This document shows, in pieces, positions 3,750-29,341 of a stretch of DNA of 64,000 bases. The position numbers and the translations under genes are program-made. Position 1 is the stretch's first letter. Each line of letters opens with the position of its first letter. Origin of the DNA: Minisyncoccota bacterium (GTDB taxonomy: Bacteria > Patescibacteriota > Minisyncoccia > Phycocordibacterales > UBA9973); contig JBAZOQ010000002.1 in assembly GCA_041648595.1 (NCBI GenBank), forward strand, positions 10,446 through 74,445, read 5' to 3'. The notes beneath the pieces are model-generated. The model saw nothing but the letters and a program-made list of their open reading frames with translations. It had not been told where the DNA came from and did not search any database.

Positions 3750-4964
3750 TTAATCAAAGTAATTTTTAAGGCGAGCTATTTTTTCATGCTGACGAAGTTT
3801 TTCGTGAACTTTTGCCTCAATCTGACGAATACGTTCACGCGTCACTCCAAACTCTTCCCCTACTCTCTCTAAGGTGTGCTGTATACCATCAACAAGACCA
3901 TAACGCATTTCAAGAATTTTACATTCTTTTGGATTAAGTTCATTCAAAACTTCACGAATCTGGTCAGATAAAATTCTTCTAGAAGATTCTTGGTCCGGAC
4001 GTAAAATTTTATCATCAGGAATAAAATTTTCAAGAGTTGATTTATCATCATCATCTCCTACTGGTTGTTCAAGAGAAATAGTTTCTTGACTAATATTTTC
4101 AATCACATGAATTTTTTCAATAGGAATACCCATTTCTGTAGCGATCTCTTCTGCTAATGGTTCACGTCCTAGGTCTTGACTGAGTCTTCTATAAACTTGT
4201 TTATATTTTGAAATAGTTTCTACCATATGCACTGGAATACGAATAGTTCTACTTTGATCAGCAAGCGCTCGAGTAATAGATTGACGAATCCACCAAGTTG
4301 CATAAGTTGAAAATTTATATCCTTTAGTCCAATCAAATTTTTCAACAGCTTTAAATAACCCCAGATTTCCCTCTTGAATTAAATCTAAAAGACTTAAATT
4401 AGCGCTTCTTCCTACATATTTTTTAGCAATAGAAACCACAAGGCGTAAATTTGCTCGTGCTAATAAATTTTTTGCTTCTTCGTCACCTAATTCTATACGT
4501 TTAGCAAGATCCTTTTCATCACCAGCACGAATAAGTGAATACTGTCCTATTTCTTTTAAATACATTTGAATAGAATCATGTATTGTAGATTTATTTAAAT
4601 CTTTATCAGAAATATCATTATCAAGATTCAGTAAATTTCCACCCTCTAGTACATCTATCCCAGCAACTGAAAATTTTTCATAAAGTTCATCCAAAAAGAA
4701 AATATTGTTTTCAATATCAGGAAAAGTTTTTAATATTTCGTCATAAGTAACAAATCCTCTCTTGCGTCCTTTTTCTATAAGATCACTCGAAACCTTTGCA
4801 AACCCTTCAGCCCTTTTTTCTGCTGCAGTTGTTTTTTTTGTAACCTTTTTTCCTATTTTTTTTATTTTTTTAGTAATTTTTACTTTTTTTATCTTTTTTA
4901 CAATCTTTCTAAGAGGTTTTTTACTAAACTTTTTTATTTTTTTATTTTTTATTTTTTTCTTCAT
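3750..4964 (-). CDS. rpoD: RNA polymerase sigma-70 factor RpoD
   Basis: The product carries [39 protein letters not shown] (regions 2-4) and has a Lys-rich N-terminus. The start is set to the ATG of MKKKIKNKK; the ORF track extends to 5009 through the repeat element. Confidence 0.9.
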
Positions 4965-10500: not shown

Positions 10501-11134
10501 TTGCTTCAAAACAAGTACCATATTTTAAAGAATAATGATGAAAAGAAATTTCATTTAAAACTTTTCCTTCATATATTTCTAAAATTTCTTTCTTTGTACT
10601 AGTAAATAAATTCTTTAATTTAAGACGTGTATCTTCGTCTGCTGCGTTTTTTAATTTAGCTTTATATTCTTTATCTAAACCTTGAACAATTATTTCTTTT
10701 TCATCTTCATGAACTTTCGTAATTATATATCCAGCAAAATAAATAACTTTTTCAAGATCAGACACAGAAATATTTAAAAGGATACTCATCCTAGAAGGTA
10801 CTCCTCTTAAAAACCAAATATGAGCAACAGGTGTCGAAAGCTCAATATGTCCCATTCTTTCTCTTCTTACTATAGAACGAGTTACTTCGACTCCACATTT
10901 TTCACAGATAATATCTTTATAACGAATTCGACGATATTTTCCACAATAACATTCATAATCTTTTTCTGGTCCGAATATTTTCTCGTCGAAAAGACCACCA
11001 CGCTCAGATCTGCCTGTACGATAATTTATGGTCTCAGGTTTAGTAACTTCCCCATAAGACCATTCTTTTATTTGCTCGGGTGATGCGAGCTTGAGTGAAA
11101 TATAATCAAAATCAGTTTTATTTAGTGTTTTCAT
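7523..11134 (-). CDS. rpoC: DNA-directed RNA polymerase beta' subunit
   Basis: NADFDGDQMAV catalytic motif, zinc-binding Cys cluster, 1203 aa. Confidence 0.97.
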   Translation of the reverse strand: MKTLNKTDFDYISLKLASPEQIKEWSYGEVTKPETINYRTGRSERGGLFDEKIFGPEKDYECYCGKYRRIRYKDIICEKCGVEVTRSIVRRERMGHIELSTPVAHIWFLRGVPSRMSILLNISVSDLEKVIYFAGYIITKVHEDEKEIIVQGLDKEYKAKLKNAADEDTRLKLKNLFTSTKKEILEIYEGKVLNEISFHHYSLKYGTCFEANIGAEAIYSIFKNLDLNKLKNHTEKMLEKASAIEKEKLQKRLSLIRAMTYAGIRPEWMFLTVIPVIPPVLRPMVALDGGRHATSDLNDLYRRVINRNNRLKKLKEINAPDVILRNEKRIIQEAVDALIDNSIAKQNDSAAMSQSQKRPLKSLSDNLKSKQGLFRQNLLGKRVDYSGRSVIVVGPDLKLNQCGLPKHMALELFRPFVISKILLAELAFNIRGANKLIEERTPEVWAMLEEVIQGKYVLLNRAPTLHRLGIQAFNPILIEGNAIQVHPLVCQAFNADFDGDQMAVYVPLLDEAQAEAKNLMAANKNLLKPQNGDPIVHPSKDIVLGSYWMTKSVDGEIGEGKYFSSPNTAITAYEYGIISLRAKIKVLATDSHKYHKFEEGFFDTSVGKLLFNSILPNDFSYVGDEMTSTRLSSLVDELIMHYGVDETPPILDSIKTFGFKYSTFSGTTWGLDNVKVPVEKVKIVEEGRKLEEKIIAQWNEGLLSEEERYQKIIEIWTYAKKELEKVLPKTLNKNGSTFDLFTSGARGTMTSLIQMAGMKGLIQNNQGRTLEFPIIPSYFEGLSSIEYFVTTHGARKGASDTALNTAKAGYLTRRLVDVAQDVVITEEDCGTKEGKIVTRENISGIEIPLSKNIRGRVLAGDLKDKAGKVVYKKGFLITKEEAHNIEGAGYEEVFVRSPLTCRTTHGLCQMCYGLDLGRNHLVDLGEAVGIIAAQAIGEPGTQLTLRTFHAGGVAGTDITTGLPRIEEIFERRIPKNPAIISETDGEVFEIKNKDEKEKIIKVLSDSKVDGKANEVEYLIPFRRTPIVKVGQKVKKGELLTDGSADIAGIFKFGTKEMVEEYIIREINKVYELQSASISRKHTEIIIRQMFSRRKIKDSGETNFSIGDIVENTAFIEENERIVKLKQQEAKAEIIVLGITEVSLRTKSWLSAASFQNTNRVLIENAVKGGIDSLRGLKENVIIGRLIPAGTGFKSRTISPKEEE

Positions 11135-14100
11135 ATTTTTTCAAGTTAACATCGAGAGCTAATCCTCGTAAATAATTAAGCAAAACATTAAACGATGCGG
11201 GAGAATTTGGTGGTTTAATAGTTTCATTTTTGATAATAGAATCAAATGTAGCAGATCGACCTAAAATGTCATCAGATTTAATTGTAAGCATTTCTCGTAA
11301 TGTATAAGCTGCACCATACCCTTCGAGTGCCCATACTTCCATTTCTCCAAATCTCTGTCCTCCACCTTGAGCTTTTCCACCTAATGGTTGTTGAGTAATG
11401 AGAGAGTAAGGTCCGATAGAACGCATATGAATCTTATCTTCTACCATGTGGTGAAGTTTCAACATATACATATAACCAACAGCAATATCTTGATCAAAAG
11501 CTTCTCCTGTACGTCCATCAAAAAGTTTTAACTTACCATTCTCTGGAAATCCAGCTTTTTTTAATTCTTCTCGTATTTCTTCATGACGTGCTCCTAAAAA
11601 TGGAGGAACAATAGCTTGATATCCCAATGTATTTGCAGCCATACCAAGATGCATTTCTAATATTTGTCCCAAGTTCATACGAGAAGGAACACCAAGCGGT
11701 GAAAGAATTATATCTACTGGTGTACCATCTGCTGCATATGGCATATCTTCTTCTGGAAGAATTCTTGAAATAACTCCCTTGTTTCCATGTCTTCCTGAAA
11801 GTTTGTCTCCAACTGAAATGTTTCTAATCTGAGCAACTTCAATAACTATTTTTTTAATAATTCCTGCTTCAAGTGTATGTCCCAAATCACGAGAAAAAAT
11901 CTTAATACCAATAATACGTCCACGTTTTCCGTGCTCCATTCTTAGTGATGTATCTTTAACATCACGTGCTTTTTCAGCAAAGATTGAACGTAGTAATCTT
12001 TCTTCTGGGGTAAGTTCAGTCTCACCTTTTGGTGTAATTTTACCAATCAAAATATCGTTTTCTCTAACTTCAGCACCAATACGAACAATACCATCTTCAT
12101 CTAAATCTTTAAGTTTTAATTCTCCAACATTTGGAATATCACGAGTAGTGATTTCAGGTCCTAATTTAGTATCACGAACAACACAAACAAATTCTTCAAC
12201 ATAGACACTAGTAAATTTACTCTTTTTCACAAGACGCTCAGAAATAATTATAGCATCTTCATAATTTGATCCAGACCAAGACAAGAATGCTACAAAAATA
12301 TTTTGTCCAATTGAAATTTGTCCATCCACTGTACTTGTCGTATCAGCTAAAACATCTCCTTTCTTTATTTTTTGACCTACGTCTACTGCGGGACGTTGAT
12401 GAAAAGAAGAAAAATTATTATTTCTCAAAAAATTAACAAGCGTATAAGTTTTTTCTTTATCTCCCTTTCCTTTTACTACTATTTTTTTCGCATCTAAATA
12501 AGAAACTACACCATCTTCTTCTGCAAGAACAATTCTACCAGAATCTCGAGATGCAAGAGCTTCAATACCAGTAGCCACTAGTGGTGCTTCTGGAAGAACA
12601 CAAGGTACTGCTTGTTTTTGCATGTTTGATCCCATGAGAGAACGATTAGCATCATTGTGCTCTAAAAAAGGAATCATTGAAGTCGCTACTGAGAAAGCTT
12701 GATTTGCAGCAACATCAATAAAATCAACTTCATCGCGACTAATCATTCCTGGATTAGTTTTTACTCTAGCTGCAACTCTTTCTTCTGTTATTTTTCCATC
12801 CTTATCATAAGAAATAGCGGCATGAGCAATGTTGTATTTTTCTTCTTCAAGTGCATTTAAGTATTGTACTTCATCAGTAATTTTTCCATTTTTTACTTTT
12901 ATATATGGAGTCTCTATAATTCCAAAATCATTTATTTTTGCATAAGTTGAAAGATGTAAAATAAGACCAATGTTTGGACCTTCAGGAGTATGAATAGGAC
13001 AAACTCTTCCATAGTGAGAAGGATGAACGTCTCGAACTTCTAACCCTGCACGTTCGCGCGTTAAGCCTCCAGGTCCTAATGCGGACAATAAACGAATATG
13101 TTCTATTTCTGCCAAAATATTTTCTTGACTCATGAATTGTGAAAGTTGGTTTGTGGTAAAAAATTCCTTAATACGTGCTTGAAGTGGACGTTGATTAATT
13201 ATATGAATTGGTAATGCTGTATCAATATCAATAATAGACATTCTGTCTTGAATATTTCTTTTAATTTGCATCATACCAGTACGTACTTTCTGTTGAAGCA
13301 TTTCTCCAACAAAGCGAACACGTCTCTGTCCTAAGTGATCAATGTCGTCAGACTTAGCACCTACTGTGTTATTTAAAACAATAATATTTGTAATTACTGT
13401 CATTAAATCTTCTTTAGAAATAGTTCTAAGGGCAAGTTCTTCATCACCCAATCCTTTTTCAAAACGTTTATTAAACCTATATCGTCCGACAGGAGAAAGA
13501 TCATATCTTTCAGGAGTAAATAAAGAATTAATAAATTCTTTGGCATTTTCAGGTGTTGCCATATCTCCATCTCTCAAGCGTTTATATATTTCAATATATG
13601 CATCGTTTAATGTCTTTGCTATATCTTTTGCAAGACAAGCTTCAATAGCATCTTTACAAGAAGGAGTTTTCTCAAATGCTTTTAACATTGCTTCATTGGT
13701 ACCATAACCCATAACACGTAAAAGTGCTGTCGCTGGGAATTTTCTTTTTTTGTCTATTCTTATGTAAATTGCTCCATCGGATTCTGATTCTATTTCAATC
13801 CAAACTCCACGAGCTGGAATAATTTTTGCACCAAAATATCTTTTACCTTTACTTTCAGACTCAGTAAAGAAAACTCCAAAAGAACGTGCAAGCTGTGGCA
13901 CGATAATACGTTCTACTCCATTTATAATAAAAGTTCCATGTGGAGTCATTAGTGGAAGCTCAGACATAAAAATCTCTTGCTCTTTAACAGTACCTAAAAT
14001 TTTATTTGTTAACTTTACACGAGTCTTCAAAAGACCTTGATATGAAAGTTTATTTATTTTAGCTTCATTCTCTCCACAATTAGCTTCACCTAAAGAGAAA

Positions 14101-14291
14101 GATGAAAACTCAAGTTCAAATTTTTTTCCAGAATAATCTACAATAGGAGAAAATTCTTTAAAAACTTCTTTAATCCCTTCTTCAATAAGCCACTTATATG
14201 ACTTAGTTTGAGCTTCTATTAAATTTGGAAACTCAATCAGCGGATTTTTATATCTCGCAAAATACTTCTTCGGACGTTTTTCTGTTTGCAT
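11118..14291 (-). CDS. rpoB: DNA-directed RNA polymerase beta subunit
   Basis: 1057 aa with conserved beta-subunit blocks (GEMEVWALEGYGAAYTLRE and others). Overlaps rpoC by 17 bp. Confidence 0.97.
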   Translation of the reverse strand: MQTEKRPKKYFARYKNPLIEFPNLIEAQTKSYKWLIEEGIKEVFKEFSPIVDYSGKKFELEFSSFSLGEANCGENEAKINKLSYQGLLKTRVKLTNKILGTVKEQEIFMSELPLMTPHGTFIINGVERIIVPQLARSFGVFFTESESKGKRYFGAKIIPARGVWIEIESESDGAIYIRIDKKRKFPATALLRVMGYGTNEAMLKAFEKTPSCKDAIEACLAKDIAKTLNDAYIEIYKRLRDGDMATPENAKEFINSLFTPERYDLSPVGRYRFNKRFEKGLGDEELALRTISKEDLMTVITNIIVLNNTVGAKSDDIDHLGQRRVRFVGEMLQQKVRTGMMQIKRNIQDRMSIIDIDTALPIHIINQRPLQARIKEFFTTNQLSQFMSQENILAEIEHIRLLSALGPGGLTRERAGLEVRDVHPSHYGRVCPIHTPEGPNIGLILHLSTYAKINDFGIIETPYIKVKNGKITDEVQYLNALEEEKYNIAHAAISYDKDGKITEERVAARVKTNPGMISRDEVDFIDVAANQAFSVATSMIPFLEHNDANRSLMGSNMQKQAVPCVLPEAPLVATGIEALASRDSGRIVLAEEDGVVSYLDAKKIVVKGKGDKEKTYTLVNFLRNNNFSSFHQRPAVDVGQKIKKGDVLADTTSTVDGQISIGQNIFVAFLSWSGSNYEDAIIISERLVKKSKFTSVYVEEFVCVVRDTKLGPEITTRDIPNVGELKLKDLDEDGIVRIGAEVRENDILIGKITPKGETELTPEERLLRSIFAEKARDVKDTSLRMEHGKRGRIIGIKIFSRDLGHTLEAGIIKKIVIEVAQIRNISVGDKLSGRHGNKGVISRILPEEDMPYAADGTPVDIILSPLGVPSRMNLGQILEMHLGMAANTLGYQAIVPPFLGARHEEIREELKKAGFPENGKLKLFDGRTGEAFDQDIAVGYMYMLKLHHMVEDKIHMRSIGPYSLITQQPLGGKAQGGGQRFGEMEVWALEGYGAAYTLREMLTIKSDDILGRSATFDSIIKNETIKPPNSPASFNVLLNYLRGLALDVNLKKYENTK

Positions 14292-14639
14292 GATTAATTT
14301 AGTCTAAATAAAACAAGAGAAACAAAAGAAAAACAGACAAAAAATACTTTTCTCTAGCTTCTTTTAAAATTATTTAGATATTTATGATTAAGCTTATTAA
14401 TATAACCTATTAATACAAACTGAGATACATCCGAAACTCAATCAAATCTCTTATTTACTAGTATACTTAATATTCCTATTTTGTCCACTTGACATTTAAA
14501 TTCAAATATGCTATGCTTCTACCAGATTAAGCTACTTGAAATAGTGAACAATTAGATTGGTCTTCTAAGTTTCTTTTACTTAAAAGATATTTGGAAGATC
14601 AATTTAATTAATTCATTCAATAAAACAAAAGGAACTATC

Positions 14640-15248
14640 ATGAAAAACTTTCTTTCAATTCTCGTACGTTGGGCATTGGTTTGCTCAATATTTGTGATCA
14701 TAACAATACTTTCTGTTAATCACCCATTATCTGCTCTTGATCACTATAAATTCAGCATACTGGGTGCTGGGTTTATATATTTGGCGATTTTTCACTTTAT
14801 TAAAAGTGAAGACCCTAGTGAATTACTATGGCATGGTACATTATTTCGATACACAATAATAGTGGGGTTATGTCTCTTAATATTTTTGGTTGTCTCTCTT
14901 TTTAAAATAAAAGAAGATAACAACCTATGGAATTTTATGACAATAGTAGTATTTTTTGCTATTTTAGCAGTCCAAATAATTGATGTGATTGTAAATATAA
15001 TAAAAATTACTAAAGGTAGTTCATTGAATGATGGACTACTCTCTATAGAAATTACTGCACTGATTGGAGGAATACTTTATTTTATCTCCGTAGAAAGTGA
15101 TTGGTTATCATGGATAACCTATTCTGAAGACTGGTTTAATTCATTAGGATGGACAACTATAATAGGATACCCATCACTTATCCTAGTCACGTTTATGCCA
15201 AAAATTTGGCCATGGTTATTTTTAATCAAACCAAAAACCATAGAATAA
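14640..15248 (+). CDS. Hypothetical polytopic membrane protein
   Basis: About six predicted TM helices with no recognisable motif. It is the only sizeable plus-strand gene in this region. Confidence 0.5.
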   Translation: MKNFLSILVRWALVCSIFVIITILSVNHPLSALDHYKFSILGAGFIYLAIFHFIKSEDPSELLWHGTLFRYTIIVGLCLLIFLVVSLFKIKEDNNLWNFMTIVVFFAILAVQIIDVIVNIIKITKGSSLNDGLLSIEITALIGGILYFISVESDWLSWITYSEDWFNSLGWTTIIGYPSLILVTFMPKIWPWLFLIKPKTIE

Positions 15249-15261
15249 AATTAAAAACAAA

Positions 15262-15303
15262 ATCCGGTTTTCAATAGGAAAAAATCCTATTGGAGGTCGG
15301 ATT
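15262..15303 (+). terminator. Rho-independent terminator (nested hairpin CCAATAGG/CCTATTGG plus ATCCGG/CGGAT, then TTTTTTCTTTTT)
   Basis: Lies directly after the stop of the 14640..15248 ORF. Confidence 0.55.
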
Positions 15304-15468
15304 TTTTCTTTTTCCACTCTTCAATTTTTTTATGATTTCCTGAGAGTAATACCTTAGGTACTTTATAATTTTTACTTTTTTTACCCTGAACAGAGTTGAA
15401 GGGATATTTTAAAACTTCTGGTCTTGTGTAAACTTCACTGGAAGAAACACGCTCTTCTTCTGCGTTAG
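15290..15468 (-). pseudogene. Degenerate duplicate of the trmD 3' end (last ~55 codons), orphan fragment
   Basis: Minus-strand translation gives EEERVSSSEVYTRPE...LLSGNHKKIEEWKKKKSD. The intact trmD at 16793-16960 ends EEERISSSEVYTRPEV...LLSGNHKNIEEWKKRK. Nucleotide identity is roughly 75%. Confidence 0.7.
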
Positions 15469-15583
15469 GCCTTGCCTAACGTAACCTATTCCTTAACCTA
15501 GCATATATACTAGACTAAAGAATTACTTTTTCTGTTTCCAATTTTCTATTCATCTAAGTCTTAAAGCGTTGTTTAGCTAAAAA

Positions 15584-16132
15584 TTATTCTCCATTAAAAA
15601 AAGCATTAATATCTAAAAAACAAATTATAAAACAAGCTAAGCTCTGATTAGTAATTACCTCTCCCCTATTCCAATCGAAGTCTTTTCTTTTTACCATCGT
15701 CTCTATTAAGAAAAATTGTAAATAAATTTCATTAGGGATTAATCCTTTTTCATACATTTCCACATCTGTTATTTTTTCAAAATCTTCACGATCTTCTAGA
15801 TGAATAAAATCAACTAAATGTCTTAGTGTAAGATCAAAGAAAAGCTCAGTTAATTTTTTATAATTCTTTTCTATATATAACTTTTTTGACTGTATTCCCA
15901 GTATTTTTAATCCTTCTTTATCTTTTTGATTATTTTCGTACTTATAAGCATCCTTCCACATCAAAAAGAAATTTTTTACACTATCTTTTTCTTCAATAAA
16001 TTCAGTAAACCATTCTTCTAAGTCAGGTTCAGCCAGTAATATTTTCATAGCCTTAAAATGCACTAGTGAATCTTTTTCAAATAAAAATTGTTTATATGCT
16101 TCATCAAATTTTTCTATATTTCTATTTTTCAT
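15584..16132 (-). CDS. Hypothetical protein (cargo of the trmD-associated islet)
   Basis: 182 aa with no recognisable motif. Lies downstream of the MazF-like gene. Confidence 0.4.
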   Translation of the reverse strand: MKNRNIEKFDEAYKQFLFEKDSLVHFKAMKILLAEPDLEEWFTEFIEEKDSVKNFFLMWKDAYKYENNQKDKEGLKILGIQSKKLYIEKNYKKLTELFFDLTLRHLVDFIHLEDREDFEKITDVEMYEKGLIPNEIYLQFFLIETMVKRKDFDWNRGEVITNQSLACFIICFLDINAFFNGE

Positions 16133-16224
16133 AAAAATTATGTTTCTCCCAAACCTTGCTTAACCAAATATATAACTTGTGGATAACTATCCTTGCATAA
16201 ATGTCTGACGATATGGTAAACTTT

Positions 16225-16315
16225 AAGTACAAATGGCCTTCGGGCTCCGAGACTTTCTCCGCGAGGAGGAAGACCGTTACAAAAACATCTCTCTGAGATG
16301 TTTTTGTTTTTATAT
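16225..16315 (+). ncRNA. Candidate small structured RNA, anomalously GC-rich, with UUCG and GCGA tetraloop hairpins and an intrinsic terminator
   Basis: GGCC-UUCG-GGCU and CUCC-GCGA-GGAG hairpins are followed by CAAAAACATCTC-TCT-GAGATGTTTTTG plus TTTTTAT at 16283-16315. It converges on the mazF stop. Confidence 0.3.
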
Positions 16316-16756
16316 AACATTTTTGATTTTTTCCCTAATAACATTAAAATCTTCTTCTGACATAACCCCTATTTTTCTAATTAATCTTTTACTACTCATT
16401 GTTTTTAATTGATTTAAAATAATCCTTCCTTCTTTATCTTCACTTATTAATTCACCTACTATATTCTCATAATATTCTTTGTATTTAATTTCAATATGAT
16501 ACTTATTATCTTTTTTTTGACTAGTCAATGGTATTGCCCAAAAAATATGTTGCCCAAATTTTCTCAAAACTAAAACTGGTCTTTGAAATTCTTCATCTTT
16601 ACCATTCTGTTCAGAACCAACATTTAACCCAACATTTGCCCACCAAATATCTCTTTGTTTATAAGATAAATTTAAATTATCAGCAATATGTATCCTTACT
16701 TTTACTTTGACCCATTTTACAAACTCAGCAAGTATTTTTTTAAATTCTTCGTCCAT
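16310..16756 (-). CDS. mazF: MazF/PemK-family endoribonuclease toxin
   Basis: RDIWWANVGLNVGSEQNGKDEEFQRPVLVL, FWAIPLTSQ and a C-terminal helix all align with E. coli MazF blocks. No antitoxin ORF lies upstream. Confidence 0.8.
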   Translation of the reverse strand: MDEEFKKILAEFVKWVKVKVRIHIADNLNLSYKQRDIWWANVGLNVGSEQNGKDEEFQRPVLVLRKFGQHIFWAIPLTSQKKDNKYHIEIKYKEYYENIVGELISEDKEGRIILNQLKTMSSKRLIRKIGVMSEEDFNVIREKIKNVI

Positions 16757-16792
16757 ATTATTATATTAATAATTCTTATATATAAACCTATA

Positions 16793-17539
16793 TTATTTCC
16801 TTTTCTTCCATTCTTCTATATTTTTATGATTTCCAGACAATAAAACTTTTGGTACCCCGAAGGAAAGAGTACTTCCTACGGGGCATGCTTTATAATTTTT
16901 ATATAAATTTTTTATAGCTTTAGAAGGTCTGTACTTTATTACTTCTGGTCTCGTATAAACTTCACTTGAAGATATTCTTTCTTCTTCTCTTGAATCATAA
17001 TTACCAAGCACACCTTCTATTTGACGAGAAACACAATCAACTAAAATCATCGCTGGAATTTCTCCACCTGTCAAAACATAATCCCCTATTGATAATAGTT
17101 TAAATTTTAAGAACTTGTCCTGAGCTTGCCGAAGGATCTTATCTACTCTCGCATCTATACCTTCATATCTACCACAAATTAAAATTATATCTGTATATTT
17201 TTTAGAAATATTTTTTGCATAATTAGTCGTAAACTTTTCTGCACTAGGAATAAAATTAATAACCAAAACAGCTTTTAGCTTAGAGCTTTTAGCTTTTAGC
17301 TTTTTAAAAACAAAATCAACAGCTTTTAAAATAGGCTCAGCTCTCATCACCATTCCCGGACCTCCACCATAAGGCTTATCATCTACTGGTTTATAATTAT
17401 TCTTTTGTGCTTTAATAAAGTCCCTTGGGTTATAAAACTTAACAGAAATAAGCTTATTTTTTATCGCTCGCCCAATGATAGACTCATTTAAATACGAATC
17501 AAAAATATCTGGAAAAATTGTAATAATATGGAATCTCAT
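16793..17539 (-). CDS. trmD: tRNA (guanine37-N1)-methyltransferase
   Basis: MRFHIITIFPDIF N-terminus and GGGPGMVM SPOUT knot motifs. Confidence 0.92.
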   Translation of the reverse strand: MRFHIITIFPDIFDSYLNESIIGRAIKNKLISVKFYNPRDFIKAQKNNYKPVDDKPYGGGPGMVMRAEPILKAVDFVFKKLKAKSSKLKAVLVINFIPSAEKFTTNYAKNISKKYTDIILICGRYEGIDARVDKILRQAQDKFLKFKLLSIGDYVLTGGEIPAMILVDCVSRQIEGVLGNYDSREEERISSSEVYTRPEVIKYRPSKAIKNLYKNYKACPVGSTLSFGVPKVLLSGNHKNIEEWKKRK

Positions 17540-17540
17540 A

Positions 17541-17563
17541 GCTTATAGCTTATAGCTTATAGA
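17541..17563. repeat. Tandem heptamer (AGCTTAT)x3 immediately upstream of the trmD ATG
   Basis: Read directly. The related AGCTAAAAGCTAAAACCTATAAGCT on the other side of the hairpin (17610-17640) makes an imperfect inverted arrangement. Confidence 0.6.
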
Positions 17564-17581
17564 AAAAAAACACAAGAACTC

Positions 17582-17606
17582 AAAAACCGCCCGAAGGCGG
17601 TTTTTT
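17582..17606. terminator. Perfect hairpin AAAAACCGCC-CGAA-GGCGGTTTTTT (bidirectional-looking) between ylqC and trmD
   Basis: A 9-bp GC-rich stem with an A-run upstream and a T-run downstream. Possible intra-operon attenuator. Confidence 0.55.
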
Positions 17607-17641
17607 AATTAGCTAAAAGCTAAAACCTATAAGCTAATTTT

Positions 17642-17977
17642 TTATATCCCCTTAAGGTCTTCCATTGCTTGATCAACAGTCTTTGTTGAACTTTCTGCAT
17701 TTTCAAATTTAGGTTCTGGTCTCATGCCACCTTCTGGTTCGTTAATTTTCAAATTAACACGAGCATTATTCTTCATACCTATAATTCGTAACAATGTACG
17801 AATAGCTTTTGCTGTATTCCCCATTCTTCCAATAATCTTACCCATATCACTTGGGTTTACTGTAAGTGAAATAAGTACACCCATCTCATCAACAGTACGA
17901 TCGATTTTTACATCGTTTGGATTATCAACTAGTGCTTTTACTACATATTCTAGAAATACTTTATCAGCGTCTTGCAT
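17642..17977 (-). CDS. ylqC: KH-domain RNA-binding protein (YlqC/UPF0109 family)
   Basis: GKIIGRMGNTAKAIRTLL KH motif. Conserved position between rpsP and trmD. Confidence 0.8.
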   Translation of the reverse strand: MQDADKVFLEYVVKALVDNPNDVKIDRTVDEMGVLISLTVNPSDMGKIIGRMGNTAKAIRTLLRIIGMKNNARVNLKINEPEGGMRPEPKFENAESSTKTVDQAMEDLKGI

Positions 17978-18091
17978 ATATTTCAGTAAAATTTATTTTT
18001 AATCTTTAATAATTAATGTGCAGCGTTACGACCTATAATGATTAACTGCACTGCTGTAATAAGTATATATGATTATTTTTTAGCTTTCAAC

Positions 18092-18111
18092 CCTGCCTGC
18101 CGGCAGGCAGG
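18092..18111. promoter_or_regulatory. Perfect 20-bp GC-rich palindrome CCTGCCTGCC|GGCAGGCAGG between rpsP and ylqC
   Basis: Read directly. Followed by TCTTTTCTTTT on the plus strand only. Function unknown (terminator-like or REP-like). Confidence 0.4.
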
Positions 18112-18120
18112 TCTTTTCTT

Positions 18121-18429
18121 TTATTTCTTTGCCTTTAATTCTTTACGTTTCTGAGTTGGTTTCTTCTTTGGTAATACATTTTTCTTCTTACCTTCTACCA
18201 CTTTTTGATGAACCATAAAATTATGCATTGTGTCAGAAAGTTGAGCACCTTTTGAAACCCAATATTTTATTCTATCAGTCTTAAAATTAGTTTCTCCTGC
18301 CTTTGGATTATATGTACCAACTATTTCTAAAAATCTTCCACTCTTTGTACTATTTTTTGAATCAGTTAAAACTGCCCGAAATGATGGATCGTTCTTCCTT
18401 CCTATTCTTTGTAATCTTATTTTTAACAT
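18121..18429 (-). CDS. rpsP: 30S ribosomal protein S16 with a Lys-rich C-terminal extension
   Basis: MLKIRLQRIGRKNDPSFR...GTYNP. Confidence 0.92.
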   Translation of the reverse strand: MLKIRLQRIGRKNDPSFRAVLTDSKNSTKSGRFLEIVGTYNPKAGETNFKTDRIKYWVSKGAQLSDTMHNFMVHQKVVEGKKKNVLPKKKPTQKRKELKAKK

Positions 18430-28288: not shown

Positions 28289-28324
28289 TGTCTACTATCT
28301 TTTCATATGTAAAGATAGTAGACA
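28289..28324. repeat. Palindrome TGTCTACTATCTTT-TCATATGT-AAAGATAGTAGACA overlapping the RT stop codon
   Basis: 14-bp perfect stem. Related copy at 61944-61979. Confidence 0.7.
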
Positions 28325-29341
28325 CTAATACAATAGTGTTTAAGAACACCCATATAAGAAGCCATAATTTGTTGAAATTTATCTTTATTTATTTTCCCAA
28401 TAGCTAATTCTTTTCGTGCTTTTTTAAGTTTTTTAAAAATTCTTTTCTTGGTTCTCGTTCTTAATACAATTATGTTAGGTAAAATAACATAACCCACAAA
28501 ATCTATTCCTCGACTTAATTTTCTTATATAAACTTTATCTGGATGTAATTCAAGTTTTAAGTTTTGTTTTAAAAAAATTTCTATTTCTTTTTTGTATAAT
28601 GTAAGCAAATTTTCACTTTCAAAAATTAAGACAAAATCATCAGCATATCTAAAATAATGTTTAATTTTAAGTTTATGTTTTATAAATTGATCCAATTCAT
28701 TTAAATAAATATTTGCAAAAAGTTGGCTAGTTACATTACCCAAAGGAAGTCCAACATTTGGAAACTTCTCAAAACTTTTTAAAATTTTATTAATTAACCA
28801 TAATGTATCTTCGTCTGAAATCTTTTTTTTAATAAGCTCAAATAATATAATATGGTCTATATTTTCAAAAAATTTTCTAATATCACACTTTAAAACAAAA
28901 ACTGGCTGTTTCCAATTTTTACTTTCTTTACGTAAAGCTACAAAAAGTTTTTTTGATGCTTTGTGTGTCCCTTTTTTAAGTCGTGAAGAATATGAATGAA
29001 ATATAAAATGTTTATCAAAAATTTGATATAAAACTCTAAAAACTGCTTGATTTAACACTCTATCTCTAACCACCGCTTTATGTATATGTCTGCGTTTTGG
29101 ATCATACACAAAAAATGCTTGATACTTTGTAGGTTTATAAATTTTACTTATTAGTTCCTTATGTAAAGAAAATAAATTATTTTCTAAATTAAACTCAAAA
29201 TCTGCAACATCTATTTTTTTAGTTTTGCACTTTTTAAATTCCTTCCAAGCTTGAAGTAAATTTGATAAACTTACTACATTATGGAAAAAACTTTGAACAG
29301 CCCCCCCCCCCGACGCAATTTTTGATGTCCTTGTCGTTCAT
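28303..29341 (-). CDS. Diversity-generating retroelement reverse transcriptase (Brt-like); reading frame interrupted at a C11 homopolymer (29301-29311)
   Basis: LPLGNVTSQLFANIYL matches the DGR-RT hallmark (I/L)GxxxSQ motif 4. FRYADDFVLIF is the YADD active site. FFVYDPKRRHIHKAVVRDRVLNQAV and SYSSRLKKGTHKA align block by block with Bordetella Brt. The frame is open upstream of the annotated GTG back to 29337, but the ATG (MNDKDIKNCVGGG) is in another frame. Fusion needs C10 rather than C11. Confidence 0.85.

Follow-up and report, generated by a model that had tools for sequence, protein, structure and literature searches.

A putative toxin-antitoxin pair of a MazF-family toxin and a convergent small RNA in a small cassette at the trmD 3' end of a Minisyncoccota bacterium

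MazF is a textbook type II toxin. In a stretch of 64,000 nucleotides (nt) from a Minisyncoccota bacterium (GenBank assembly GCA_041648595.1, contig JBAZOQ010000002.1, positions 10,446 to 74,445; hereafter the window), a gene of the MazF/PemK family lies directly behind trmD, and between this gene and a second, fragmentary copy of the trmD 3' end stand a GC-rich structured segment and an open reading frame (ORF) for 182 amino acids (aa). An earlier note on this DNA had taken the locus for the footprint of an element that had integrated into trmD. What could hold such a toxin in check, and how did its gene come to lie here? As a tentative answer, to which we give somewhat less than even weight, we propose an undescribed toxin-antitoxin (TA) architecture in which a MazF RNase would be held by a convergent small RNA (sRNA) of ~85 nt through the motif CUCCGAGAC. 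The pair, with neither a toxin promoter nor an integrase of its own, would form a mini-cassette that spreads among Patescibacteria by host recombination through a carried gene 3' end. The bacterium, also classified as Candidatus Paceibacterota, is a member of the Patescibacteria and thereby of the candidate phyla radiation (CPR). For this radiation, the open-access full-text literature yielded no description of a MazF protein that is paired with an RNA antitoxin, which is not proof of absence.

The toxin gene (16310-16756, minus strand; 148 aa) matches the Pfam family PemK_toxin (PF02452) over residues 33-147 with 51.6 bits, against a cut-off of 23.1. The NCBIfam MazF equivalog model is matched weakly (19.6 bits against 120), which suggests a distant MazF subfamily. 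A sequence search of the PDB gave B. subtilis YdcE/EndoA as the best match, followed by other MazF proteins. The AlphaFold2 (AF2) model, with a predicted local distance difference test (pLDDT) score of 74, has a MazF fold with an extra conserved N-terminal helix of ~30 aa. The top 50 Foldseek matches in the PDB are all of the MazF/MoxT/YdcE type (46 are so named, the others are M. tuberculosis toxin entries), with a probability of 1.00 and template modelling (TM) scores of about 0.5-0.7, so that the protein is predicted to adopt the SH3-like barrel fold of MazF/Kid. An alignment with YdcE puts QRPVLV and PLTS at the positions of R25 and T48 of B. subtilis MazF, the catalytic residues. Among 34 homologues, R59 is invariant and T78 is conserved in at least 90%. 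We regard the product as a predicted RNase toxin of the MazF family.

That this gene has no antitoxin ORF upstream, as noted before, is borne out, because the trmD stop and the toxin start are only 36 nt apart. Nor does a MazE/PemI-type antitoxin gene adjoin the toxin at the other loci that we compared: the host genes upstream have housekeeping functions and differ from locus to locus, and the downstream proteins of 11 loci are mutually unrelated. Since the toxin usually starts 2-40 nt behind its host gene, it is probably transcribed by read-through from there. We found no strong promoter of its own, only one weak match to the consensus (9/12) in the gap between trmD and the toxin gene.

The next candidate for a partner is the 182-aa ORF (15584-16132, minus strand), which is separated from the toxin gene by a spacer of 177 nt. 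Being located directly downstream on the same strand, both in the window and in locus L037, it could encode the antitoxin of a toxin-first type II arrangement. We consider this highly improbable. The ORF is absent from locus L022, where the toxin-sRNA part is 95% identical, its homologue P0063 in loci L010-12 occurs with neither toxin nor sRNA, and the lack of relationship among the proteins downstream of the toxin speaks against it as well. The protein, called hypothetical in the earlier note, has no match in Pfam, NCBIfam or PADLOC. It is all-helical, and its AF2 model (pLDDT 61) is too poor for a fold search. A search for homology to antitoxins, as the note had proposed, thus led to no family and to a homologue that is not linked to the toxin. 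Judged by its distribution, the 182-aa gene is a separate cargo rather than a toxin partner, carried on a stretch (15550-16174, minus strand) that is missing from L022.

The GC-rich structured segment is present at 16228-16318 in a contig with a GC content of 30%. Comparative evidence indicates that it is a genuine sRNA gene on the plus strand, opposite and convergent to the toxin gene, a feature that the earlier note had not recognised. The sRNA of ~85 nt would start near ACAAAUGG (16229) and continue with hairpin H1 (16235-16246; C(UUCG)G loop), the single-stranded linker CUCCGAGAC and hairpin H2 with a GCGA loop. At its 3' end we found a plus-strand terminator, consisting of a 13-bp hairpin (16279-16307) and a U-run to 16312, which overlaps the toxin stop codon. 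Upstream, in the promoter region 16178-16222, a sigma-70-type promoter on the plus strand has the -35 box TTGCAT (16193-16198) and the -10 box TAAACT (16217-16222). In 19 loci these hexamers keep a fixed distance from a GGCC motif, and the spacers are unrelated.

When the loci are aligned, the ~85 nt after the toxin stop prove nearly invariant even where the toxins are only 40-70% identical, and the mean nucleotide identity is 0.90 for the sRNA versus 0.73 for the toxin coding sequence (CDS). In 16 distinct sRNA sequences, 98% of the alignment cells at paired positions form pairs, and five pairs have changed on both sides. None of 500 shuffles reached this value, and slid controls gave 47-63%. 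The strand follows from the same alignment: read as the plus strand, all H1 and H2 cells of the 16 sequences are standard pairs, whereas a reading of the toxin strand breaks pair 8-19 in 16/16 sequences and pair 29-42 in 11/16, and turns many G-U pairs into C-A mismatches. On this comparison, a 3' untranslated region structure on the toxin strand was rejected. A protein-coding reading (an ORF beginning MAFGLRDFL) was likewise rejected, for its frame runs into a stop codon in L007, its start is missing from L015, and the changes are compensatory and not synonymous. The covariance model R1 scores the sRNA with 116.9 bits as the sole strong copy in the window, and the GCTCCGAGAC motif has no meaningful second site there. 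The homology search of the intergenic RNA that the note had called for gave a mixed outcome: Rfam 15 (E-value mode, 14200-18200, both strands) has no match over the structured segment, but the covariance model finds the RNA beside toxin homologues. In IMG/VR viral contigs, a search with the sRNA motif gave no match.

Two further observations concern the sRNA gene. A DnaA-box-like nonamer, TGTGGATAA (TTATCCACA), occupies 16178-16186 on the plus strand. It lies 3-7 nt upstream of the sRNA -35 box and recurs in the window, L003, L021, L022, L027 and L037, with inverted or one-mismatch versions in L016, L017 and L046 (one mismatch in L046). In L007, two such copies are found just upstream of a free-standing toxin gene. 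Expression might be tied to DnaA or another factor. Furthermore, the best local match of 16235-16272 (plus strand; GGCCUUCGGG..ACUUUC..GGAGGAAG) in the E. coli rrn operon is 16S helix 16/17 (nt ~415-453; L045 486-524). This likeness of the 5' half is barely above shuffles (8/300) and was not used; an rRNA decoy is a weak lead.

The connection between sRNA and toxin is best judged from eight loci that were fetched through the toxin protein alone, in a search blind to the RNA. All 8/8 have the sRNA in the same place. This toxin-first set includes a Komeilibacteria homologue with 41% identity (L046), where H1 is a different hairpin and ACAAAUGG, CUCCGAGAC, the promoter and the terminator are kept. 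Beside toxins of 32-35% identity (L018, L029) there is a shorter sRNA with two hairpins, which in L018 is divergent from the toxin gene and convergent with a Fic/DOC gene. The linker CUCCGAGAC persists despite the replacement of neighbouring hairpins in L018, L029 and L046, and the 5' hairpin is retained where H2/H3 have been replaced. Decay, on the other hand, affects one partner. In L022 and eight other groundwater contigs (nine in total), toxin codons 5-56 have been deleted in frame between two DEEF repeats and the RNA is intact; L015 has a frameshifted toxin with an intact sRNA, and L016 has the sRNA but no toxin. Among the loci examined, none has an intact toxin without the sRNA. This one-sided decay, in which the toxin is lost and the RNA kept, fits the prediction for a TA pair.

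By this pattern, toxin gene and sRNA gene make up the conserved core of the element, to which the 182-aa gene does not belong, and we lean, if narrowly, towards the sRNA as the putative antitoxin of the MazF-like toxin. The earlier statement that the toxin was retained without a cognate antitoxin accordingly stands with regard to a protein antitoxin only, since a conserved convergent sRNA, a probable antitoxin, always accompanies it. Several points weigh against this assignment. Most of the sRNA-bearing loci came from a search with the sRNA motif and are biased in this respect, which leaves the eight toxin-first look-ups as the unbiased sample. The antitoxin role is deduced solely from co-occurrence and the asymmetry of decay. 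The promoter in the window (TTGCAT-18-TAAACT) is weak by consensus and falls under the scan threshold. Finally, the sRNA without a toxin in L016 and the one beside a Fic/DOC gene in L018 indicate that the RNA could have a broader role.

The latter two loci are also the starting point for a different explanation, according to which the sRNA is not an antitoxin at all but serves the nuclease as a guide, activator or sensor, or is an independent regulatory RNA or insulator, the MazF-like protein being a solitary or otherwise controlled RNase, for example in defence. Many of the loci lie in restriction-modification or defence neighbourhoods, and the DnaA-box-like motif close to the promoter may point to an expression under regulation. 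Nevertheless, we find this explanation unlikely in view of the strict co-occurrence in the unbiased loci, the asymmetric decay that TA logic predicts, and the lack of a PADLOC match.

If the sRNA is the antitoxin, it could act in two ways. It may bind the MazF-like protein as a pseudo-substrate through the invariant single-stranded CUCCGAGAC between the hairpins, in a type III-like logic. An added or alternative layer might be that it pairs, as an antisense RNA of type I-like geometry, with the toxin mRNA that arises by read-through. An RNA that acts purely as a cis-encoded antisense partner, with the read-through duplex being cleaved by RNase III or lowering translation or stability, would suit the layout of the locus: the genes are convergent, the sRNA terminator abuts or overlaps the toxin stop in most loci, the toxin strand has AACGG and not a U-run after the hairpin, and no minus-strand terminator was found in 16100-16320, before the 182-aa gene. 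There is also a precedent in txpA and RatA: over about 120 nt their 3' ends overlap, and RNase III degrades them (PMC3531473). We nonetheless rate a purely antisense function as a rather doubtful possibility. Complementarity in cis needs no conservation, yet the sRNA is better conserved than the toxin CDS (0.90 versus 0.73), the linker outlasts the exchange of the adjacent hairpins, and the L018 sRNA, being divergent from the toxin gene, is not antisense to it. For these reasons we favour direct recognition by the protein as the presumed mode of inhibition.

How did the pair reach the trmD 3' end? Read on the minus strand, 15290-15466 yields NAEEERVSSSEVYTRPEVLKYPFNSVQGKKSKNYKVPKVLLSGNHKKIEEWKKKKSDLQ in frame, with a stop codon behind it, and the trmD-like fragment translates as AEEERVSSSEVYTRPEVLKYPFNSVQGKKSKNYKVPKVLLSGNHKKIEEWKKKKSDLQ up to the stop; the intact TrmD ends in SREEERISSSEVYTRPEVIKYRPSKAIKNLYKNYKACPVGSTLSFGVPKVLLSGNHKNIEEWKKRK. 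At the DNA level, fragment and intact gene share two collinear blocks (one of 61 nt with 79% identity, the other of 57 nt with 81%) with spacings of 1494 and 1527 nt, and the difference of 33 nt corresponds to the codons for ACPVGSTLSFG, which are missing from the fragment. Taken together, the identity is 79.7% over 158 aligned nt with this single 33-nt gap. In local alignment the score is 85, whereas 481 stretches of 203 nt drawn at random from the window reach 19.8 +/- 3.6 (maximum 35). The copy of the last ~55 trmD codons that the earlier note had seen in the sequence is therefore real, in frame and far above chance, with an identity of ~80% instead of the estimated ~75%.

A comparison of TrmD sequences revealed the hybrid nature of the intact gene (16793-17539, minus strand; 248 aa; Pfam tRNA_m1G_MT, E 1.9e-34). 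TrmD proteins of this group vary in a loop between EVYTRPE.LKY and KNYKVPKVLL. The body of the window TrmD (..IEGVLGNYDSREEERISSSEVYTRPEV) groups with proteins that bear the loop PFNSVQGKKSKNYK, named T2, which is the loop of the fragment, and the nearest bodies, P0070 (85%) and P0073 (83%), have a T2 end. The intact gene, however, has the loop RPSKAIKNLYKNYKACPVGSTLSFG (T3), and T3 ends sit on other bodies (..IPGVLGKYESLEEERV). Thus, the body is native and the last ~55 codons, about 16793-16960, are foreign. The informative sites of nucleotide alignment A1 shift from native-like to donor-like at about 16950-16975, and this crossover interval on the gene side (attL-like, minus strand) falls inside the SSSEVYTRPE codons. 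The long displaced remnant, which we call L (15301-15461, minus strand), shows the reciprocal shift, from a donor-like start GAGCGTGT (EEERV) to a native T2 end, with the crossover at about 15425-15447.

The same trmD genes harbour another peculiarity. GC-rich hairpins of ~33-39 nt are placed in frame within the coding sequence. The one at 16850-16885 in the window, CCCCGTAGGAAGTACTCTTTCCTTCGGGG, encodes ACPVGSTLSFG and is present in all T3-type TrmDs. A different one, CCGCCAAAGGCGGATCCGCCTCGGGCGG, lies near the TrmD N-terminus of L022 (oriented about 4418-4455) and encodes SAKGGSASGGD. They resemble in-frame insertions of palindromic elements such as the Rickettsia palindromic elements.

The genomes of relatives have preserved the state before the insertion. 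In L038 and L040-42, which are the closest relatives according to TrmD, rpoB directly follows trmD, and the ancestral order is rpsP-KH-trmD-rpoB. The trmD-rpoB spacer is 270 nt in L038 and 172 nt in L042, where rpoB-rpoC follows; L040/41 are alike. L038 is the nearest genome (rpoB, 87% nucleotide identity; TrmD, 85% amino-acid identity), and its trmD end is 90% identical to remnant L over 160 nt, compared with 79% over the remainder of the gene. The intact end in the window, by contrast, is only ~80% identical to the remnant. Empty sites, a displaced native fragment and a chimeric gene together bear out the suggestion that trmD was entered at its 3' end by an element which brought a new C-terminus with it. 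Islands are recognised by repeats of the target's 3' end in direct orientation and by relatives with an empty site, and both are found here. These findings also bear on another alternative, namely that the trmD end was duplicated locally in tandem and the copies diverged later, with no foreign DNA involved. In its favour, the repeats are direct ones, equally oriented at a distance of 1.5 kb. However, the intact end is the T3 loop variant of other lineages, the remnant is closer to the native end of the closest relative than to the window's own, and its start is donor-like. Being contradicted by the chimera pattern, an origin in situ is hardly credible.

We conclude that a unit of ~1,527 bp recombined into the last 55 trmD codons and moved the native end 1.5 kb downstream. 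In order, this unit comprises the foreign trmD 3' end, the MazF toxin gene, the convergent sRNA gene and the 182-aa cargo gene, after which come an older trmD remnant and the palindrome described below. Because the switch of informative sites is reciprocal and the repeats are spaced by 1527 nt, a single Campbell-type crossover between a circular copy of the element and the chromosome, within the conserved SSSEVYTRPE codons, would suffice. Direct repeats of the target gene on both sides might allow the element to loop out again and to re-enter any genome with a similar gene.

The earlier note further took the islet for an old and decayed one that had lost its integrase. This is not what the comparison indicates; it shows that the core has spread recently. 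The toxin-sRNA part shares its 95% identity with L022, a groundwater contig of the same rnr-rpsP-KH-trmD synteny, in which the rpsP-trmD flanks are only 72% identical; to L037 it is 97-98% identical versus 86.5% for that region overall. Other copies of the module use other genes. It is located 10 nt after dnaJ in L008/L009, 2-3 nt after hsdM in L003 and L021, behind further genes in L014 and L027, and behind a terminator in L017. With a core of 95-98% identity between flanks of 72-86%, and with several target genes, the element looks like a small cassette that is currently mobile, not like the stump of a large island. At these sites, too, copies of the target end flank the module: a diverged 35-nt copy at dnaJ (LINKLKEEGI, then stop), 58 nt with 86% identity at hsdM (KGRELEKEIENNLKELGF, then stop), 38 nt at the terminator and about 77 nt at trmD of L022. 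Each of them has z = 8-18, and 0/200 shuffles scored as high; L003 and L006 have weaker remnants of the hsdM end.

In the hsdM-linked defence island of L006, extra hsdM-end remnants (KKVEGFIKELKY, then stop) flank successive cassettes with an NYN gene, a 156-aa ORF, the toxin and a Bro-N gene, which suggests cassette arrays built in the same way. The same island has a second sRNA-like gene (L006 5630-5960) upstream of the toxin, with a promoter and 5' end that are 92% identical and a different GC-rich terminator hairpin. In L021 (859-1014), the sRNA promoter and the hsdM-end remnant downstream are separated by a lysine-rich 51-aa ORF (MAKVKNPIKEIWESDKK...), which occurs in this locus only and has no family match.

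What drives the movement? The unit contains the toxin gene, the sRNA gene and the 182-aa ORF only, and no integrase or recombinase was found in it or among ten mid-size window ORFs that were scanned. The two trmD remnants in the window start at different points of the gene, EEERV in L and VPKVLL in a shorter remnant, S (see below), although few independent trmD events were seen. Given the lack of an integrase, the differing remnant starts and the use of other target genes, the driver may be homologous recombination by the host, for which the element's own piece of trmD would provide the homology. To this reading we assign an even chance. Proteins of a type IV pilus of the DNA-uptake type are encoded in the window. 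Three observations detract from this reading. Homologous recombination does not account for the first duplication whenever a new gene is targeted, one of the informative sites does not fit a simple single crossover, and the palindrome that borders the remnant could be where a recombinase supplied in trans acts.

The last point leads to a competing model, a non-autonomous site-specific element, similar to a cis-mobilizable element (CIME) or a satellite, on which a tyrosine or serine recombinase acts in trans at a trmD-end site, perhaps at the palindrome GCGTTAGGC..GCCTAACG. This palindrome (GCGTTAGGC-CTT-GCCTAACG; 15462-15482, without strand, read in the sequence) directly abuts the start of remnant L, and in L022 and L037 relatives of it come after remnant S. 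It may be bound by a protein or serve in recombination. Flanking repeats from a target gene 3' end with a foreign replacement end are as expected for att sites of the tRNA type, and the tandem remnants would mean that one site was used repeatedly. We still judge a recombinase in trans to be a minority possibility. Besides the missing integrase and the differing remnant starts, the targets dnaJ, hsdM and a terminator are unrelated, and the repeats of 35-180 nt have no common core. An integron cassette was rejected as well. The palindrome contains GTTAGGC/GCCTAAC, which are similar to GTTRRRY/RYYYAAC heptamers, but it is a 9-bp hairpin without attC architecture, no integrase was found, and the flanks are copies of the target gene. 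We therefore retain host recombination as the working model for the movement.

The present insertion is not the only one at this junction. Remnant S (about 15523-15567, minus strand; ..IENWKQKK, then stop), a short degenerate trmD 3' end that, like the palindrome, is additional to the earlier note, is homologous to a longer counterpart in L022 (VKVLLSDNHKLIENWKQKK, then stop), which lies directly after the sRNA promoter. It matches the TrmD ends of other lineages (P0077, P0101, P0110, P0116). L037 has the toxin, the sRNA, the 182-aa gene and the short remnant, followed by another gene and no long remnant. On this evidence, remnant S is the trace of an earlier insertion in a previous host. Beyond remnant L, the homology with L038 ends at 15301 and restarts at 14466, upstream of rpoB. 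The 834-nt replacement in between (14467-15300, plus strand) starts exactly where the native trmD ends and holds a 202-aa membrane-protein ORF (14640-15248, plus strand) with no match in Pfam, NCBIfam or PADLOC. Two trmD remnants and this replacement show that the trmD-rpoB junction is a pile of small insertions, each with a trmD remnant. A long terminator-like hairpin of 20 pairs followed by a T-run (15259-15305, plus strand) marks the point where the displaced trmD fragment and the 202-aa ORF both end. In the spacer of L038 (6692-6770), a perfect inverted repeat rich in GC, CCCCCACACCTATTT..AAATAGGTGTGGGGG, is framed by two TTGACA boxes, and it is exactly this spacer that is exchanged in the window for the segment with the 202-aa ORF.

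As to the remaining surroundings, rpsP (18121-18429) and the KH-domain gene (17642-17977), both on the minus strand, precede trmD, and rpoB (11118-14291) lies beyond the 202-aa ORF. Tandem repeats of 7 nt (AGCTTTT, ATAGCTT, AGCTAAA) occur within and just upstream of trmD (17270-17304, 17538-17562, 17611-17637), where they build long inverted repeats about the start of trmD and also stand on both sides of a strong terminator hairpin (17582-17605). A scan for tRNA and tmRNA genes found no tRNA near the islet. Elsewhere in the window, a 268-aa ORF (28303-29109, minus strand) has a reverse-transcriptase domain (RVT_1, E 2e-21).

If the assignment is correct, a MazF subfamily with a small RNA in place of a protein antitoxin would blur the distinction between type I, II and III systems. 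It would combine type I geometry with type III logic in a compact, testable pair of an RNA inhibitor and a protein. The sRNA itself is a new and well-supported RNA family in the CPR, from which, to our knowledge, almost no regulatory RNAs are known. The cassette suggests a way in which very small genomes without classical mobile elements could shuttle single genes. A piece of a conserved housekeeping gene would serve as the element's own homology arm, the interrupted gene would be repaired, and the stack of remnants would record earlier hosts. For annotation, it follows that 'orphan' MazF genes in the CPR are worth checking for an sRNA, and that short duplicated gene ends may be cassette boundaries.

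Among known systems, we see the element as a variant whose nearest kinds are TA systems with RNA antitoxins on the one hand and gene-end-targeting cassettes on the other. With type II mazEF/pemIK it shares the toxin family, the predicted MazF fold and the positions of the conserved Arg and Thr. It differs from them by the absence of a MazE/PemI-type gene up- or downstream, by the extra N-terminal helix of ~30 aa, and by a promoterless location behind a host gene. In type III systems, the toxin processes an antitoxin RNA that is encoded upstream, on its own strand, as an array of tandem direct repeats. Like the type III systems ToxIN, CptIN and TenpIN, the pair described here would combine an endoribonuclease of Kid/MazF-like fold, without a protein antitoxin, with a structured RNA, inhibition by which we infer; the single-stranded motif between hairpins suggests recognition by the protein. 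However, the sRNA is single-copy, convergent and downstream with a promoter of its own, and the toxin is a true PF02452 MazF/PemK member and not ToxN or AbiQ. A type III tandem-repeat architecture was rejected, as there are no tandem or direct repeats near the toxin and the single-copy RNA is on the opposite strand. The toxins of type I systems are small hydrophobic peptides, whereas this one is a soluble 148-aa protein and a predicted MazF-fold RNase. The arrangement nevertheless resembles the type I pairs with 3' overlap, B. subtilis txpA/RatA and bsrG/SR4, in that a convergent sRNA with its own promoter meets or overlaps the toxin mRNA 3' end with its 3' end. Of this geometry, promoter, terminator and convergence are seen, and an overlap past the stop codon depends on read-through. 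Unlike in type I, the sRNA is conserved beyond antisense need, and in L018 it is divergent. With regard to mobility, the closest parallel is provided by islands at tRNA and tmRNA 3' ends, which include tandem arrays with partial-tRNA remnants such as the tycheposons (bioRxiv 10.1101/2020.12.28.424599). Here, the target is a protein-coding housekeeping gene, and several unrelated targets are used; the unit of ~1.5 kb (core about 0.7 kb) has no detected integrase, and its repeats are long (35-180 nt), diverged and variable in extent. In both cases, however, the element's copy restores the 3' end of the target, the native end is left as a downstream remnant, and repeated insertions shift older remnants outward.

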